A stretch of DNA of 19,623 nt from a virus (Duplodnaviria > Heunggongvirae > Uroviricota > Caudoviricetes): IMG/VR virus record IMGVR_UViG_2681813223_000024, one strand, 5' to 3'. Positions 2,607 through 19,623 of the stretch are shown here, in pieces (within the stretch, counting starts at the first letter, position 1; the number at the start of each line of letters is the position of its first letter). Both the position numbers and the translations under genes were made by a program. A model generated the notes under the pieces. That model was not told the origin of the DNA and did no database searches. It saw nothing but the letters and a program-made list of their open reading frames with translations.

Positions 2607-3998
2607 ATGACTGAGAACACGACTCCAACAGCAGACTTTAGTCCTAGTAAAAGATTTTTTGTAAGTATGCTAACTCGAGATATCGACTTAAACGATGCCA
2701 TACTTGATCTGCTTGATAACTGCGTCGATGGGGCTTTACGTACAATAAAAGACACAAAAAAAACTTCAAAACCATATGAAGGATTTTATGCGAAACTTAC
2801 GATTAATAAAGATGTCTTTATTATAGAAGACAATTGCGGAGGTATCCCTAAAAGCTTCCGAGAATATGCTTTTAAAATGGGACGACCCCATCAAAAAGAA
2901 GAAGAAAATGAAGGCACCGTTGGCGTCTATGGTATTGGTATGAAAAGAGCCATTTTTAAAATGGGTAGAGATTGCTCAATACAATCGAATAATCCCGATG
3001 GCGCATTCACTGTAGATATAACACCTGATTGGATCGATGGTGATGGTTGGAAAATACCGATGCACGAGAGTGACTATGATAACAAAAATCCAACAGGCAC
3101 AACTATAGAGATAAAAAAACTCCATTCTAATGTGGCACAAAAATTTAATGAGAGCACATATCTTACTGATCTCTTTTTACAGATAAAACACTCATTGTCA
3201 TTTATTATTCAAAAAGGATTTAAAATAGAATTAAATGGAGTTGTTGTTGAACATAATCCGATTAACATCATAACTGATCATTCTAAAATAGAACCATACA
3301 TATATAAAGCTAAAATAGACGATGTTGATATCGATTTAGTTGTTGGCTTCTATAAAAATTTAGAAGATGACAATGATGATGTTTTAGAAAAAAGGAGTTC
3401 TGATGATGCTGGATGGACTGTCATTTGCAATGACCGCGTTGTTCTATATTGTGATAAGACACATCTCACAGGTTGGGGCTTTGCTAATGTACCAAGGTTT
3501 CATACCCAATTTATAGCAATTTCTGGGGTTGTTCGCTTTACCAGTAAAAACCCAGAAAAATTACCAATAACAACAACGAAACGAGGTGTCGATCTTAGTT
3601 CTACATTGTACAATGATGTACGAAATAAAATGATTGAAGGGATGATGCATTTTATTCGATTCACCAATCAGTGGAAAGGTGAGCATCTTGAAGAAGGGAA
3701 AAAATTACTTAAGTCAGCTCAGTCACATGAAGCTCAATCTTTATTTGAAATTACCCCACAATCAACTCCAGAAGATAAAAAAAATAACTGGTCCAACCCT
3801 AATAGAAACAAAAATGAGTGGCGATATACACCTAAGCTGCCTACCCCAGTAAAAAAAAGCTCTACTGTACGAATAATCTTCACCAGAGAGAAAGAAGATG
3901 TTAAAATTTTATCTAAATATTTCTTTGGACATGAAGATGCTAGCGCTTCTGATGTGGGGATGCAATGCTTTGATACGGTGATTGAAGAGGTGAAGTGA
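2607..3998 (+). CDS. GHKL / Bergerat-fold ATPase (MutL/MORC/Hsp90-type ATP-binding domain) with C-terminal extension, 463 aa
   Basis: N-terminal region shows the ordered GHKL motifs: DLLDNCVDGA (motif I, ExxxNxxDA type), IEDNCGGI (motif II, DxGxG type), GVYGIGMKRA (motif III, GxxGxG), PTGTTIEI (motif IV, TGT). Purine-rich SD (agagag) 6 nt before the ATG. Confidence 0.85.
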   Translation: MTENTTPTADFSPSKRFFVSMLTRDIDLNDAILDLLDNCVDGALRTIKDTKKTSKPYEGFYAKLTINKDVFIIEDNCGGIPKSFREYAFKMGRPHQKEEENEGTVGVYGIGMKRAIFKMGRDCSIQSNNPDGAFTVDITPDWIDGDGWKIPMHESDYDNKNPTGTTIEIKKLHSNVAQKFNESTYLTDLFLQIKHSLSFIIQKGFKIELNGVVVEHNPINIITDHSKIEPYIYKAKIDDVDIDLVVGFYKNLEDDNDDVLEKRSSDDAGWTVICNDRVVLYCDKTHLTGWGFANVPRFHTQFIAISGVVRFTSKNPEKLPITTTKRGVDLSSTLYNDVRNKMIEGMMHFIRFTNQWKGEHLEEGKKLLKSAQSHEAQSLFEITPQSTPEDKKNNWSNPNRNKNEWRYTPKLPTPVKKSSTVRIIFTREKEDVKILSKYFFGHEDASASDVGMQCFDTVIEEVK

Positions 3999-4987
3999 TG
4001 TCTGGACAATACATTCCCTATCACTTAAGGCATAATAAGTCTATTGATAGAGAGATTTTTCTCGAAAGCCTAAACCTCTTAAGCAAAAGACTAAATATTC
4101 AAGAATATACATATATAGGTTTTGGTGGTCCGATGCTTGAAGATTTTAGAATCATGCATAATCGTATCGCTCTTTCTGATATGATTTCTCTCGAAGAACA
4201 AGAGTCTACTCACATCAGACAAAAATATAATTTGCCTTATAATTGTATTGATTGTAAGCTAATATCAGCTCATGACTTTATTCTTGATTATAGTTTTTCT
4301 AAACCATCAATAACATGGTTAGACTATGCCTCCCCGAAAAAAATACAAACGGATCTAGATGATATACACTTACTAAGTACTAAAGTAAGCTCTTTTGATA
4401 TTTTGAAGGTCACCTTCCCCATAAATCCTAGTTCTTATTACCAACGTAGAGTTGGAGAAAGTTTAGATATTTTTAAAGAAGCTTTTATTAATTCATTAAA
4501 ATCATTGCTTGGGAAAAAGTATCTTGATTTTAATCTTCAGATATCAAATGCAGATCTTTCAGATCGTAAGATTAAAGCTCTTTTAATACGAATTATTACA
4601 AACGCTTTTAGATCAGCAATAGAACGTGGTCTTTCAGGACGTAAGGATAAGATTCAGTATTACCCATTATCCTTAAATCAATATAATGATGGCAGTCATA
4701 CCATGTTGACAATATCAGGTTTTTTCTCCTCAGAACAAGAATATATAGAGTTATCTAAGGCATGCGACCTTTCTAACTGGCAATTTTATTCAACAAATTG
4801 GGAAGACGTGCAAGAAATAGCAATACCAACACTAACAATTAAAGAAAAGATAAATTTAGATAGTAAACTGCCTGATAAAGAAGCATATCAGGCAGCCGCT
4901 GAAGAGTTCTCTTTAAACGAAAATGAACGGGATAACTATTATAAATACTATAGGTTATACCCTAACTTCCAAAGAATTATGGTTTAA
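3998..4987 (+). CDS. Uncharacterised protein, translationally coupled partner of the GHKL ATPase (329 aa)
   Basis: ATG at 3998 shares its A with the upstream TGA; AGGTGA lies 4 nt upstream. An in-frame GTG at 3995 is the alternative start used in the ORF track. Long uninterrupted ORF in the same AT-rich context. No catalytic motif recognisable by eye. Confidence 0.75.
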   Translation: MSGQYIPYHLRHNKSIDREIFLESLNLLSKRLNIQEYTYIGFGGPMLEDFRIMHNRIALSDMISLEEQESTHIRQKYNLPYNCIDCKLISAHDFILDYSFSKPSITWLDYASPKKIQTDLDDIHLLSTKVSSFDILKVTFPINPSSYYQRRVGESLDIFKEAFINSLKSLLGKKYLDFNLQISNADLSDRKIKALLIRIITNAFRSAIERGLSGRKDKIQYYPLSLNQYNDGSHTMLTISGFFSSEQEYIELSKACDLSNWQFYSTNWEDVQEIAIPTLTIKEKINLDSKLPDKEAYQAAAEEFSLNENERDNYYKYYRLYPNFQRIMV

Positions 4988-6106
4988 ATATTCGGGCTGT
5001 ACTCTTTTATTTAATAAATTGTACAGCCCCTTTAATATATATTCAGCAACTATTGGTGACACGCTATTTCCTATTTGTCTGAAACTATGCCATTTAGTTA
5101 CATGAAAGCGAAACCAATCAGGGAAGCCTTGTAATCTAGCAGCTTCTCTTGGTGTAATCACTCTTGGATGATAAGGGTGGATCGGCCTGACGGCTTGAAA
5201 GCTTCCTTTATCTCTAGCGGTTCCCGCCCTTAAAGTCGGGCAAAAACCATTTGGATCTAATCTTGTAGATCTTGAAATTTTATCAGTTTCCCCAAAAGAT
5301 AAGGAAGCATAACGCTCTTGGACGATTTTGCTATGTAATGTTCCGGTACATCCAGATATGATATTATTTTTTAACTTAGCGATCGATTCTGTATCACCAA
5401 CATTCCGAGGGATCTGCCCCCATAATTTTTCATAAAATCCCCCTTTTCGATCTTTTTTAATTGTTCGCCAACTCTCAGAGTCTGATTGCCAATTGGCATC
5501 GATAATATCTGGTAATCCATACAAAGCATCTTTTACAGTAACCGGATCAATCATTTTAGGCATAAATACTTCATCTGAAATATCAAGCTTCAATGATTTT
5601 TTTACACCGATAAAAAAATATCTAGTTCGAATAGTTGGAGCACCATAATCAGATGCTTTTACCTTGATGGGATCAAGAATATCATAATCACCGCTAACCA
5701 AATTAAATGCTTTATTTCTAATGCCAGAATATTTCTCTTGCATAATACCTGGAACATTTTCTGCCAAAAAGAATAATGGCTGTAATTCTGATACTAAACG
5801 GTAGAAATGCATGTAAAGCTGATTCCTGCTATCATCAGGATTCCCCTTGCCTATTGAACTAAATCCTTGGCACGGAGGACCGCCAATAATACCATCTATG
5901 GGCATATCGTTTTTAAAAAAACCCTTAATTATTTCTGCATTTAGTAAAGAAACATCTTCTTGGACGTGCAAACTTCTTGGAAAATTAATTGCGTGAGTAT
6001 TAATAGCATGTTGATCAATTTCAACTGCCATTTTAACATCAAATCCAGCACGTGCAGCACCAAGACTTAGACCTCCAACGCCAGAAAACAAATCTATTAC
6101 ATTCAT
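4955..6106 (-). CDS. DNA (cytosine-5)-methyltransferase (383 aa)
   Basis: Canonical C5-MTase motifs in order: DLFSGVGG (motif I, AdoMet binding), GGPPCQGFS (motif IV, catalytic Cys), ENV (motif VI), QIGNSV near the C-terminus, with a long variable region between. 3' end overlaps the partner gene convergently by 33 bp. Confidence 0.9.
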   Translation of the reverse strand: MNVIDLFSGVGGLSLGAARAGFDVKMAVEIDQHAINTHAINFPRSLHVQEDVSLLNAEIIKGFFKNDMPIDGIIGGPPCQGFSSIGKGNPDDSRNQLYMHFYRLVSELQPLFFLAENVPGIMQEKYSGIRNKAFNLVSGDYDILDPIKVKASDYGAPTIRTRYFFIGVKKSLKLDISDEVFMPKMIDPVTVKDALYGLPDIIDANWQSDSESWRTIKKDRKGGFYEKLWGQIPRNVGDTESIAKLKNNIISGCTGTLHSKIVQERYASLSFGETDKISRSTRLDPNGFCPTLRAGTARDKGSFQAVRPIHPYHPRVITPREAARLQGFPDWFRFHVTKWHSFRQIGNSVSPIVAEYILKGLYNLLNKRVQPEYLNHNSLEVRV

Positions 6107-13220: not shown

Positions 13221-13394
13221 AAGTGAATTTTGTGATGCGATGAATGCGGCTAAGCGCACGTGGCACAGTTAAAAGTCATGTTAGTCCTTATTGGTTTGGG
13301 TGGGAAAGCCGACTGTAATTGTTAACTGGTTGCAGTCACCTGGAGGCACCAGGCACCGCATCAACAAAGTTCATTTGTAAAAATGGAGATAATT

Positions 13395-14237: not shown

Positions 14238-16838
14238 ATGAGCACAAAACCACTCTTCCTGTTACGGAAAGCGAAAAAATCATCCGGTGAACCTGACGTC
14301 GTCCTGTGGGCAAGCAACGATTTTGAATCGACCTGTGCCACTCTGGACTACCTGATCGTTAAGTCAGGTAAAAAACTGAGCAGCTATTTTAAAGCTGTTG
14401 CCACGAATTTTCCTGTCGTTAATGACCTGCCCGCTGAAGGTGAGATCGATTTTACCTGGAGTGAACGCTATCAACTCAGCAAAGACTCCATGACATGGGA
14501 ACTAAAACCGGGAGCAGCACCAGACAACGCTCACTATCAAGGCAATACCAACGTCAACGGCGAAGACATGACTGAGATTGAGGAGAATATGCTACTCCCA
14601 ATTTCTGGCCAGGAACTGCCCATTCGTTGGCTTGCTCAACACGGCAGCGAAAAACCGGTAACGCACGTTTCACGCGACGGACTCCAGGCATTACACATTG
14701 CTCGGGCTGAAGAACTACCGGCTGTTACTGCCCTGGCTGTTTCCCACAAAACCAGCCTGCTCGACCCGCTGGAAATTCGCGAACTCCACAAACTGGTTCG
14801 TGACACTGACAAAGTTTTCCCTAATCCTGGTAATTCAAACCTGGGACTGATAACTGCTTTTTTCGAAGCATACCTGAACGCTGACTACACCGATCGAGGA
14901 CTGCTGACAAAAGAGTGGATGAAGGGTAATCGTGTTTCACACATCACTCGCACGGCTTCCGGTGCTAATGCTGGCGGCGGAAACCTCACCGATCGCGGCG
15001 AAGGTTTCGTACACGATCTGACGTCACTGGCGCGCGACGTAGCCACTGGCGTACTGGCCCGTTCAATGGATCTGGACATCTATAACCTTCATCCGGCACA
15101 CGCTAAACGCATTGAGGAAATTATCGCTGAAAATAAACCGCCCTTTTCTGTTTTCCGCGACAAATTCATCACCATGCCTGGCGGGCTGGATTATTCCCGC
15201 GCCATCGTGGTTGCGTCCGTAAAAGAAGCACCAATTGGGATCGAGGTCATCCCCGCGCACGTCACTGAATATCTGAACAAAGTACTGACTGAAACCGATC
15301 ATGCCAACCCTGATCCGGAAATCGTGGATATTGCCTGCGGTCGCTCCTCTGCCCCGATGCCGCAGCGAGTAACAGAAGAAGGAAAACAGGATGATGAAGA
15401 AAAACCGCAACCATCTGGAACAACGGCAGTTGAACAGGGAGAGGCTGAAACAATGGAACCGGACGCAACTGAACATCATCAGGACACGCAGCCGCTGGAT
15501 GCTCAGTCACAGGTAAATTCTGTTGATGCGAAATATCAGGAACTGCGGGCAGAACTCCATGAAGCCCGGAAAAACATTCCATCAAAAAATCCTGTCGATG
15601 CCGATAAATTGCTTGCTGCATCACGTGGTGAATTTGTTGACGGAATTAGCGACCCGAACGATCCGAAATGGGTAAAGGGGATCCAGACTCGCGATTGTGT
15701 GTACCAGAACCAGCCAGAAACGGAAAAAACCAGCCCGGATATGAATCAACCTGAGCCAGTAGTGCAACAGGAACCGGAAATAGCCTGCAATGCCTGCGGC
15801 CAGACTGGCGGGGATAACTGCCCTGACTGTGGTGCGGTGATGGGCGACGCAACATACCAGGAAACATTCGATGAAGAGAGTCAGGTTGAAGCTAAGGAAA
15901 ATGATCCGGAGGAAATGGAAGGCGCTGAACATCCGCACAATGAGAATGCTGGCAGCGATCCGCATCGCGATTGCAGTGATGAAACTGGCGAAGTCGCAGA
16001 TCCCGTAATCGTAGAAGACATAGAGCCAGGTATTTATTACGGAATTTCGAATGAGAATTACCACGCGGGTCCCGGTGTCAGTAAGTCTCAGCTCGATGAC
16101 ATTGCTGATACTCCGGCACTGTATTTGTGGCGTAAAAATGCCCCCGTGGACACCACAAAGACAAAAACGCTCGATTTAGGAACCGCTTTCCACTGCCGGG
16201 TACTTGAGCCGGAAGAATTCAGTAACCGCTTTATCGTAGCACCTGAATTTAACCGCCGGACAAACTCCGGAAAAGAAGAAGAGAAAGCGTTTCTGAGGGA
16301 ATGCGCAAGCACAGGAAAAACGGTTATCACTGCCGAAGAAGGCCGGAAAATTGAACTCATGTATCAGAGCGTTATGGCTTTGCCGCTGGGGCAATGGCTT
16401 GTTGAAAGCGCCGGACACGCTGAATCATCAATTTACTGGGAAGATCCTGAAACAGCAATTTTGTGTCGGTGCCGTCCGGACAAAATTATCCCTGAATTTC
16501 ACTGGATCATGGACGTGAAAACTACGGCGGATATTCAACGATTCAAAACCGCTTATTACGACTACCGCTATCACGTTCAGGATGCATTCTACAGTGACGG
16601 TTATGAAGCACAGTTTGGAGTGCAGCCAACTTTCGTTTTTCTGGTTGCCAGCACAACTATTGAATGCGGACGTTATCCGGTTGAAATTTTCATGATGGGC
16701 GAAGAAGCAAAACTGGCAGGTCAGCTGGAATATCACCGCAATCTGCGAACCCTGGCTGACTGCCTCAATACCGATGAATGGCCAGCTATTAAGACGTTAT
16801 CACTGCCCCGCTGGGCTAAGGAATATGCAAATGACTAA
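14238..16838 (+). CDS. recE: Exodeoxyribonuclease VIII, full-length (866 aa)
   Basis: 866-aa ORF with an acidic low-complexity middle region and C-terminal nuclease domain, followed by an overlapping recT; matches recalled K-12 RecE length and N-terminus. Confidence 0.93.
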
Positions 16839-17640
16839 GCAACCACCAATCGCAAAAGCCGATCTGCAAAAAACTCAGGGAAACCGTGCACCAGCAGCAA
16901 TTAAAAATAACGACGTGATTAGTTTTATTAACCAGCCATCAATGAAAGAGCAACTGGCAGCAGCTCTTCCACGCCATATGACGGCTGAACGTATGATCCG
17001 TATCGCCACCACAGAAATTCGTAAAGTTCCGGCGTTAGGAAACTGTGACACTATGAGTTTTGTCAGTGCAATCGTACAGTGTTCACAGCTCGGACTTGAG
17101 CCCGGTAGCGCCCTCGGTCATGCATATTTACTGCCTTTTGGTAATAAAAACGAAAAGAGCGGTAAAAAAAACGTTCAGCTAATCATTGGCTATCGAGGCA
17201 TGATTGATCTGGCTCGCCGTTCAGGTCAAATCGCCAGCTTGTCAGCCCGTGTTGTCCGTGAAGGTGACGAGTTTAATTTCGAATTTGGCCTTGATGAAAA
17301 GTTAATACACCGCCCAGGAGAAAACGAAGATGCCCCTGTTACCCACGTCTATGCTGTCGCAAGACTGAAAGACGGAGGTACTCAGTTTGAAGTTATGACG
17401 CGCAAACAGATTGAGCTGGTGCGCAGCCAGAGTAAAGCTGGTAATAACGGGCCGTGGGTAACTCACTGGGAAGAAATGGCAAAGAAAACGGCTATTCGTC
17501 GCCTGTTCAAATATCTGCCCGTATCAATTGAGATCCAGCGTGCAGTATCAATGGATGAAAAGGAACCACTGACAATCGATCCTGCAGATTCCTCTGTATT
17601 AACCGGGGAATACAGTGTAATCGATAATTCAGAGGAATAA
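16831..17640 (+). CDS. recT: RecT single-strand annealing recombinase (269 aa)
   Basis: Start at [42 protein letters not shown] overlapping the recE stop by 8 nt; an ATG 6 nt upstream (MQMTKQ) is an alternative start. Confidence 0.93.
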
Positions 17641-17695
17641 TTCAGCCTGGCGGTGTAATGCACCGCCAACTTGAAATATTTTTATGAGAAAAATT

Positions 17696-17845
17696 ATGAG
17701 ATATGACAATGTTAAACCATGTCCATTTTGTGGTTGTCCATCAGTAACGGTGAAAGCCATTTCAGGATATTACCGAGCGAAGTGTAACGGATGCGAATCC
17801 CGAACCGGTTATGGTGGAAGTGAAAAAGAAGCACTCGAACGATGA
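17696..17845 (+). CDS. ralR: RalR/Lar-type restriction-alleviation toxin, apparently truncated to 49 aa by an in-frame TGA
   Basis: MRYDNVKPCPFCGCPSVTVKAISGYYRAKCNGCESRTGYGGSEKEALER then TGA at 17843..17845. The same frame continues NKRTTGNNNGGVHV to a TAA at 17888..17890, which matches the recalled 64-aa RalR C-terminus where Trp (TGG) stands in place of this stop. Confidence 0.6.
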   Translation: MRYDNVKPCPFCGCPSVTVKAISGYYRAKCNGCESRTGYGGSEKEALER

Positions 17846-17882
17846 AATAAACGAACCACTGGAAATAATAATGGAGGTGTTC

Positions 17883-18071
17883 ATGTATAAAATTACCGCC
17901 ACTATTGAAAAGGAAGGTGGCACTCCTACTAACTGGACAAGATATTCAAAATCTAAACTAACGAAATCAGAATGCGAAAAAATGCTCTCAGGTAAAAAAG
18001 AAGCAGGCGTTTCCAGAGAGCAGAAAGTAAAACTGATAAATTTTAATTGCGAGAAACTTCAGTCCTCGTGA
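17883..18071 (+). CDS. ydaC: Small Rac-type protein YdaC-like (62 aa)
   Basis: Start at MYKITATIEKEGG with GGAGGT 6 nt upstream; the ATG overlaps the position of the ancestral ralR stop. Confidence 0.65.
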   Translation: MYKITATIEKEGGTPTNWTRYSKSKLTKSECEKMLSGKKEAGVSREQKVKLINFNCEKLQSS

Positions 18072-18103
18072 ATTGCATTGTATTCAAATTAAAACTTCAT
18101 AGC

Positions 18104-18119
18104 TGATTATTAATAATCA
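18104..18119. repeat. Perfect 16-bp A/T-rich palindrome upstream of xis (TGATTATTAATAATCA)
   Basis: Self-complementary 16-mer about 50 nt upstream of the xis start. Confidence 0.35.
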
Positions 18120-18170
18120 ACATCGGGCGTCAATTTAAGTCTAACATTGGCGCCTGCCAGAGGTGATGCG

Positions 18171-18386
18171 ATGGCACAAGTAATCTTTAATGAAGAGTGG
18201 ATGGTTGAATACGGCCTGATGCTTCGCACTGGTCTGGGGGCCAGACAAATTGAAGCATACCGCCAGAACTGTTGGGTGGAAGGCTTCCACTTCAAACGAG
18301 TATCTCCTTTAGGGAAGCCAGACAGTAAGCGAGGGATTATCTGGTATAACTATCCAAAGATAAATCAGTTTATCAAAGACTCATGA
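18171..18386 (+). CDS. xisR: Excisionase-like protein (71 aa)
   Basis: Start at [35 protein letters not shown] with AGGTGA upstream; immediately before int; matches recalled Rac YdaQ/XisR. Confidence 0.8.
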
Positions 18387-18387
18387 T

Positions 18388-19623
18388 ATGTCTAAATTAC
18401 CAACAGGTGTCGAGATTCGAGGTAAATACATTCGCATCTGGTTCATGTTTCGAGGAAAACGATGTCGGGAAACATTGAAAGGCTGGGAGGTTACTAACAG
18501 TAACATTAAAAAAGCCGGGAATTTAAGAGCGTTGATAGTTCATGAAATCAATTCCGGTGAGTTTGAGTATTTAAGACGTTTTCCCCAGTCCAGCACTGGG
18601 GCAAAAATGGTGACAACGAGGGTCATAAAAACGTTCGGGGAGCTTTGTGATATCTGGACAAAAATTAAAGAAACAGAGTTAACAACAAACACAATGAAGA
18701 AAACGAAATCACAATTAAAAACACTCAGGATAATAATTTGTGAGAGTACTCCGATATCGCATATTCGTTATAGCGATATCTTAAACTACCGGAATGAACT
18801 GCTGCATGGAGAAACGCTTTACCTGGATAATCCAAGATCCAACAAAAAAGGAAGAACCGTGCGCACAGTTGATAACTATATCGCCCTGCTCTGTTCGTTG
18901 TTACGTTTTGCGTATCAGTCGGGATTTATATCAACCAAACCATTTGAAGGAGTAAAGAAATTACAGAGAAACAGAATAAAGCCTGACCCGTTATCTAAAA
19001 CAGAATTCAATGCATTAATGGAAAGTGAAAAAGGACAGAGCCAGAACTTGTGGAAATTTGCCGTATACTCCGGGCTTCGTCACGGGGAACTGGCTGCTCT
19101 GGCGTGGGAGGATGTGGATTTCGAGAAGGGAGTTGTGAATGTCAGAAGAAACCTGACGATACTGGATATGTTCGGTCCCCCAAAAACAAATGCGGGGATC
19201 CGGACGGTAACACTACTGCAGCCTGCTCTTGAAGCACTGAAGGAGCAATACAAACTGACCGGGCATCATCGCAAAAGCGAAATCACCTTTTATCATCGGG
19301 AGTACGGCAGAACCGAAAAGCAAAAACTGCATTTTGTTTTCATGCCCAGGGTGTGTAACGGAAAACAAAAACCTTATTACTCGGTAAGCAGTTTGGGGGC
19401 AAGGTGGAATGCAGCAGTAAAACGTGCTGGTATTCGCCGCCGTAATCCGTACCATACGCGGCATACTTTTGCCTGCTGGCTGTTGACGGCAGGAGCGAAC
19501 CCGGCATTTATAGCCAGCCAAATGGGGCATGAAACTGCGCAGATGGTGTATGAAATTTACGGTATGTGGATTGATGACATGAACGACGAACAGGTAGCCA
19601 TGTTGAATGCGCGGTTATCATAG
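18388..19623 (+). CDS. intR: Tyrosine-type site-specific integrase (411 aa)
   Basis: 411-aa ORF directly after xis, with a C-terminal catalytic region containing the R...HxxR...Y pattern (RHGELAAL, HTRHTFA, YEIYG); matches recalled Rac IntR. The window ends at its stop codon. Confidence 0.93.
   Translation: MSKLPTGVEIRGKYIRIWFMFRGKRCRETLKGWEVTNSNIKKAGNLRALIVHEINSGEFEYLRRFPQSSTGAKMVTTRVIKTFGELCDIWTKIKETELTTNTMKKTKSQLKTLRIIICESTPISHIRYSDILNYRNELLHGETLYLDNPRSNKKGRTVRTVDNYIALLCSLLRFAYQSGFISTKPFEGVKKLQRNRIKPDPLSKTEFNALMESEKGQSQNLWKFAVYSGLRHGELAALAWEDVDFEKGVVNVRRNLTILDMFGPPKTNAGIRTVTLLQPALEALKEQYKLTGHHRKSEITFYHREYGRTEKQKLHFVFMPRVCNGKQKPYYSVSSLGARWNAAVKRAGIRRRNPYHTRHTFACWLLTAGANPAFIASQMGHETAQMVYEIYGMWIDDMNDEQVAMLNARLS

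Follow-up and report, generated by a model that had tools for sequence, protein, structure and literature searches.

We analyzed a stretch of 19,623 nucleotides from a Caudoviricetes virus record (the window), which carries on its plus strand a ralR reading frame at positions 17696-17890. The frame translates as MRYDNVKPCPFCGCPSVTVKAISGYYRAKCNGCESRTGYGGSEKEALER, a stop, NKRTTGNNNGGVHV and a second stop. The internal stop is a TGA at 17843-17845 in the position of codon 50, leaving a truncated allele of 49 codons plus TGA (17696-17845). We aligned the locus to ralR of Escherichia coli K-12 MG1655 (b1348, 195 nt, 64 codons), in which codon 50 is TGG, and to the copies in O145, phage 683R6 and Rac-SA53, and found that the opal codon (plus strand) takes the place of a tryptophan that is invariant in the family. 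It differs from TGG by a single transition, and the gene is otherwise undamaged. A preliminary description, made from the letters of the window, had placed a tryptophan here in K-12 and proposed a truncation after residue 49, and both points agree with the alignment and the translation, the K-12 gene having no stop at codon 50. The former codons 51-64 and their TAA stop (17846-17890, plus strand) are identical in nucleotide sequence to K-12 and would stay untranslated barring UGA read-through. These 14 codons and the ydaC start (ATG at 17883) are thus intact, as the same description had it. Between 17640 and 18100 there are only four differences from K-12: a run of five Ts in place of six in the ralR leader, 13 nt before the start codon (17679-17683, plus strand); C17840 (plus strand), which gives CGA for Arg-49 where K-12 has AGA; A17845; and T18069.

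The antitoxin sRNA RalA lies next to ralR on the opposite strand (17889-18067, minus strand) and is full length, matching positions 1-179 of the 179-position Rfam model RF02694 with 225.1 bits (gathering score 170). It does not differ from K-12 RalA, nor is any difference from K-12 found anywhere in 17846-18068. The ralR coding region contains the 16-nt RalA pairing site (AAGTGAAAAAGAAGCA, 17818-17833, plus strand), which is complementary to RalA and matches 17990-18005 at 14 of 16 positions, 11 of them contiguous. This site ends 9 nt ahead of the stop codon, is unchanged from K-12 and has the same sequence in Guo et al. 2014. That RalA represses translation of ralR in an Hfq-dependent manner has been described from K-12 experiments only (PMC4041452).

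The next gene, rcbA or ydaC (17883-18071, plus strand), encodes a DUF1187 protein of 62 residues, identified by annotation and by Pfam PF06688 (132 bits, profile positions 1-61 of 61). Its ATG is found 5 nt ahead of the old ralR stop and is preceded by a GGAGGTG ribosome-binding site at 17872-17878. The rcbA stop, TGA at 18069-18071, is shared with O145, phage 683R6 and Rac-SA53, and K-12 has AGA there and a protein of 69 residues, which makes the K-12 reference rcbA the derived form. Read upstream, the rcbA frame has no stop as far as an ATG at 17811, within ralR. The resulting reading frame (17811-18071) has 86 residues, and the changes at 17840 and 17845 are both non-synonymous in it. This upstream extension is probably not used, the DUF1187 profile beginning at the 17883 ATG. 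In some E. coli genomes, RalR-YdaC fusion proteins (P0012, P0015) are encoded, the P0012 junction falling exactly at the AAAAAGAAGCA repeat, which is the RalA pairing site. Such fusions point to deletions between the 11-nt repeats at 17823-17833 and 17995-18005, which would remove the 3' end of ralR, the 5' part of rcbA and about the 3' 60% of ralA. A scan for promoters and terminators returned weak consensus matches only, on which we did not rely.

The window as a whole matches Sp10 of E. coli O157:H7 Sakai and CP-933R of EDL933 at 100%, save for a masked run of Ns and one SNP, and is the integrase-proximal arm of this Rac-like prophage. The 65 Ns at 436-500 stand in for 260 nt of Sakai/EDL933 sequence, which in those copies hold a tRNA-Arg(tct) gene and part of a tRNA gene with anticodon cat; the run masks both, so that no tRNA is detectable within the window. 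The SNP, at 13240 between the KilS sRNA region and kilR, is an A in the window and a G in both Sakai and K-12, and is the sole difference from Sakai across 19.1 kb. Elsewhere, at 2607-6106, a GHKL-type ATPase (HATPase_c_3, 463 residues) and a Methyltransf_35 'O-methyltransferase' (329 residues) are convergent with a C5 cytosine DNA methylase (383 residues), and this group may be a prophage modification or defense module. The gene order recE, recT, ralR, rcbA, xisR and intR, adjoining ttcA, matches that of K-12 Rac. Over the last 7.6 kb we counted 86 differences from K-12 Rac, a divergence of 1.1%, and the ralR stop is thus one among many allelic differences between two prophage lineages. In strain E2865, the recE-recT-ralR-rcbA block (16100-18136) has 2 mismatches to the window, in contrast to 44 in xisR-intR (18137-19594), where E2865 follows K-12, unlike the window. 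The region 16100-19600 is mosaic, and the pattern in E2865 shows that recombination has moved the block bearing the allele between prophage backgrounds.

We compared the 49-residue product with the models available for its family. PGAP names it ralR (WP_001443846.1) in the identical sequences of E2865, EDL933 and O55:H7 CB9615 and raises no pseudogene flag; the Sakai reference annotation is inconsistent with this and has no coding sequence at 17696-17845. The Pfam model Lar_restr_allev (PF14354) matches the product at profile positions 2-52 of 58 with 39 bits, above the threshold of 28.6, in comparison with 53.5 bits for the 64-residue form, the drop reflecting the loss of the last six profile positions. 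For TIGR03655 the product is barely over the cutoff (40.3 versus 39.6 bits; 55.3 bits for the 64-residue form), and for the NCBIfam RalR model NF007260 it reaches 126.9 bits against a cutoff of 113, matching only positions 1-49 of 64. The four zinc-ribbon cysteines, Cys-9, Cys-12, Cys-30 and Cys-33 in a CPFCG ... CxxC arrangement, are present, and the C-terminal W-N-x-R motif, the Trp codon of which is now TGA, is missing from the product. By sequence this is therefore the ralR locus, and by product a truncated form.

The sequence R-W-N-K/R-R stands at the corresponding position in every homolog from Salmonella, from Citrobacter, from further species of Escherichia and from other Rac-like phages. 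Searching 1.84 billion representative proteins with a profile, we found 3,968 family members; from the best 145 of these, representatives at no more than 50% identity, we aligned 192 domains. In this set, Trp-50 is conserved in 192 of 192 domains, a unanimous result that nevertheless carries some circularity, the hits having been picked with a profile that contains the tryptophan; Asn-51 is conserved in 98% and Arg-53 in 91%, and the cysteines in 97-100%. Trp-50, Asn-51 and Arg-53 are invariant in 79 single-domain members aligned independently with MAFFT. A stop at codon 50 was found in no other family member that we examined. In an AlphaFold2 model (mean pLDDT 78), a β-hairpin (residues 17-30) is followed by a helix (residues 43-52) that bears Trp-50, with low confidence for residues 54-64. 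A Foldseek search of this model against the PDB returned nothing below E = 0.09 and only generic zinc ribbons (eIF2-beta, ELOF1, RPB9/C11), with no nuclease fold among them. A sequence search of solved structures gave only chance matches to CbpD, which we discarded.

Published mutants allow the missing residues to be related to activity. Among those described for K-12 RalR by Guo et al. 2014 (PMC4041452), changes at residues 14, 37, 39, 49, 51 and 52 cut toxicity in a mutant screen, alteration of residues 43-46 abolished it, and a purified residue-52 mutant failed to cleave DNA. Residues 14, 37 and 39 are retained in the window product, and residues 51 and 52, encoded past the stop, are absent. 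The loss of these two residues, both needed for toxicity and the latter for DNase activity, together with that of the W-N-x-R motif, makes it very likely that the 49-residue form is non-toxic, judging from the K-12 mutants and from family conservation. Codon 52 is found at 17849-17851; the inactive A154G mutant is given as K52G in the table and as K52Q in the text of Guo et al. 2014, and an AAA to GAA change would read K52E by the genetic code.

We next consider how widely the allele is distributed. We counted perfect matches to 61-base queries centered on the two neighboring SNPs in codons 49 and 50 in 5,426 complete E. coli genomes. The haplotype of the window, CGA-TGA, occurs in 310 genomes, the K-12 haplotype AGA-TGG in 1122 and CGA-TGG in 123, and AGA-TGA is absent. 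About 1,900 genomes carry ralR, and the stop is thus found in ~16% of carriers. An exact 61-mer with the upstream run of five Ts matches 311 genomes, nearly the same number as the TGA, which indicates that the stop travels on one haplotype with three changes (the T deletion, CGA and TGA). The opal codon probably had a single origin, on the CGA background, as the haplotype counts suggest. Its carriers include O157:H7, O55:H7 CB9615, O26, O111, O103 and assorted human, bovine, bird and water isolates, O55:H7 being the sister lineage of O157:H7. Identity to the window over 501 nt is also seen in three deposited phage genomes. The exact 49-residue protein occurs on at least 1,000 contigs in a collection of 15 billion proteins, and has RefSeq and UniRef entries. 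A 61-mer from intR, used as a marker of the O157 lineage, matched 275 genomes of many types and was of no use for sorting the 310 carriers according to prophage background. A literature search on ralR in O157 returned no paper that mentions the truncation. The allele is an ordinary nonsense polymorphism, long established and catalogued before, in a toxin gene of a prophage.

Taken together, the most probable reading, and one in which we have considerable confidence, is a long-established Trp-50 to opal allele of ralR that renders the RalR/RalA pair toxin-null and leaves RalA and rcbA intact. The 49-residue product would keep the four-cysteine zinc ribbon and lose the final turn of its C-terminal helix, where W-N-x-R is located, and without this turn it would be devoid of DNase and toxin activity. 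Ribosomes would stop 38 nt ahead of the rcbA ATG and no longer overlap it, and any translational coupling between the two genes would be lost. rcbA would still be translated from its own strong ribosome-binding site, independent initiation there appearing feasible. A small fraction of ribosomes would insert tryptophan at the UGA and produce authentic full-length RalR, the sequence giving no sign of anything beyond background leakage. Given such read-through, the allele is not a strict null.

The preliminary description had regarded the change as a recent inactivation, possibly selected to detoxify the locus. Inactivation itself is very probable, with Trp-50, Asn-51 and Arg-53 and the functionally implicated residues 51 and 52 lost together, but the distribution of the allele does not bear out its recency: the stop belongs to a fixed haplotype common to O55:H7, O157:H7, O26, O111, O103, other isolates and the three phage records. 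A recent, strain-specific event under positive selection would be consistent with a single transition in a gene without other damage. Other ralR lesions, which are rare in the databases, could likewise reflect recurrent pressure against the toxin; they comprise frameshifts (P0003, P0005), a W50S substitution (P0002) and the RalR-YdaC deletion fusions described above. However, an allele found in 310 complete genomes of several serotypes, O55:H7 included, is not specific to a strain; its single haplotype of two linked changes, never seen as TGA on an AGA background, points to one origin; it is only one of the 86 differences from K-12 Rac; and 1,245 genomes keep TGG. We thus regard a recent, selected detoxification as unlikely. 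At 1.1% divergence from K-12 Rac, ~0.5 differences would be expected in 45 nt, and the intact downstream codons are therefore uninformative about age. Spread of the established allele by selection for detoxification is possible, as is spread by drift or hitch-hiking.

Alternatively, the 49-residue zinc-ribbon fragment could be functional in its own right, retaining Lar-type restriction alleviation or binding to a partner, with toxicity alone lost. All four cysteines and the β-hairpin are kept, the fragment passes the Pfam, TIGR03655 and NF007260 thresholds, and the reading frame is intact in all copies seen, phage records included. On the other hand, W-N-x-R is as conserved as the cysteines across a family for which ~4,000 representatives were found and probably serves its core function, and the TIGR03655 score lies just at the cutoff. 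We therefore hold a dedicated function of the fragment to be quite improbable. Under the toxin-null reading as well, the 49-residue form may have some residual or different activity, for example in restriction alleviation, with the zinc ribbon and residues 14, 37 and 39 kept. Every copy seen has a reading frame without damage as far as the stop, which fits a retained function and too little elapsed time equally well.

A third possibility is that the UGA acts as a leaky dimmer, read-through by tRNA-Trp supplying a low and condition-dependent dose of wild-type RalR, such that attenuated expression would itself be the selected function. Of the stop codons in E. coli, UGA leaks most, and tryptophan is the main residue inserted at it; K-12 reporters show read-through of ~2% at 37 °C and ~4% at 25 °C, with higher levels at low temperature, with scarce nutrients or under stress (PMC10570021; PMC11126739). 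Downstream, the 14 codons and their TAA stop are preserved, and the +4 base is an A rather than the strongly terminating T (context rule: PMC11126739). Yet the read-through rates come from K-12, in which an inefficient RF2 (prfB) allele may be the cause of the high error rate at TGA (PMC11126739). We found no stimulatory RNA structure downstream of the UGA, its folding energy giving z = -0.04 relative to shuffled sequences; the downstream codons would be intact by chance at this divergence; and a stop at position 50 is confined to this allele among the family members examined. Strains other than K-12 carry a more efficient RF2, and read-through rates in O157:H7 may be lower. A selected dimmer thus appears very unlikely. 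If it were true, a few per cent or less of full-length RalR would be made, more at low temperature or during starvation, and a weak, stress-tuned dose of toxin or of restriction alleviation would be kept; the leaky stop would then illustrate how read-through of a stop codon can set the dose of a toxin in nature.

Finally, we give practically no credence to a sequencing or assembly error, to recoding of the UGA as selenocysteine or to a suppressor tRNA borne by the prophage, as an identical 61-mer with A at 17845 is present in 310 independent complete genomes, the RNA 3' of the UGA forms no hairpin and folds no better than shuffles, and the only tRNAs in this prophage arm, as read from Sakai where the window is masked, are those with anticodons tct and cat. 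The A17845 stop is real and not an error of this assembly.

For the nonsense allele as we read it, two practical consequences follow. The NF007260 cutoff is still passed by the 49-residue product, which leads annotation pipelines to name it a normal RalR and hides the truncation. The ralR of the carriers lacks residues that are essential in the K-12 work, and results obtained with K-12 RalR, such as toxicity, fosfomycin tolerance and the DNA breaks seen on ralA/rcbA deletion, should thus not be assumed for O157:H7, O26, O111, O103 or other carriers. Beyond annotation, the importance of the allele is small.

The closest known system is the type I RalR/RalA pair of the K-12 Rac prophage (PMC4041452), with which the window shares the locus, the recE-recT-ralR-rcbA-xisR-intR order and the ttcA insertion site. 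The first 49 residues of RalR are identical, as are RalA (100%) and the 16-nt pairing site. In contrast to K-12, codon 50 of the window is a stop, residues 50-64 are missing and the leader is one T shorter; rcbA also ends 7 codons earlier, K-12 being the unusual one in this respect. With the wider Lar family (PF14354, TIGR03655), the product shares the CPFCG...CxxC zinc ribbon followed by a helix and passes both thresholds, but it lacks the terminal W-N-x-R, in which the family shows little or no variation. Chromosomal type I toxin genes are known to be disabled by point mutation while the antisense RNA region persists. The ralR allele resembles such disabled hok homologs in that the toxin gene of a type I pair is disabled in a chromosomal or prophage copy and the antisense RNA region is kept. 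The hok homologs of E. coli K-12 mostly seem inactive (Guo et al. 2014, PMC4041452). Unlike theirs, the lesion in the window is a single opal at a tryptophan codon, a leaky stop at which read-through would restore the native residue.
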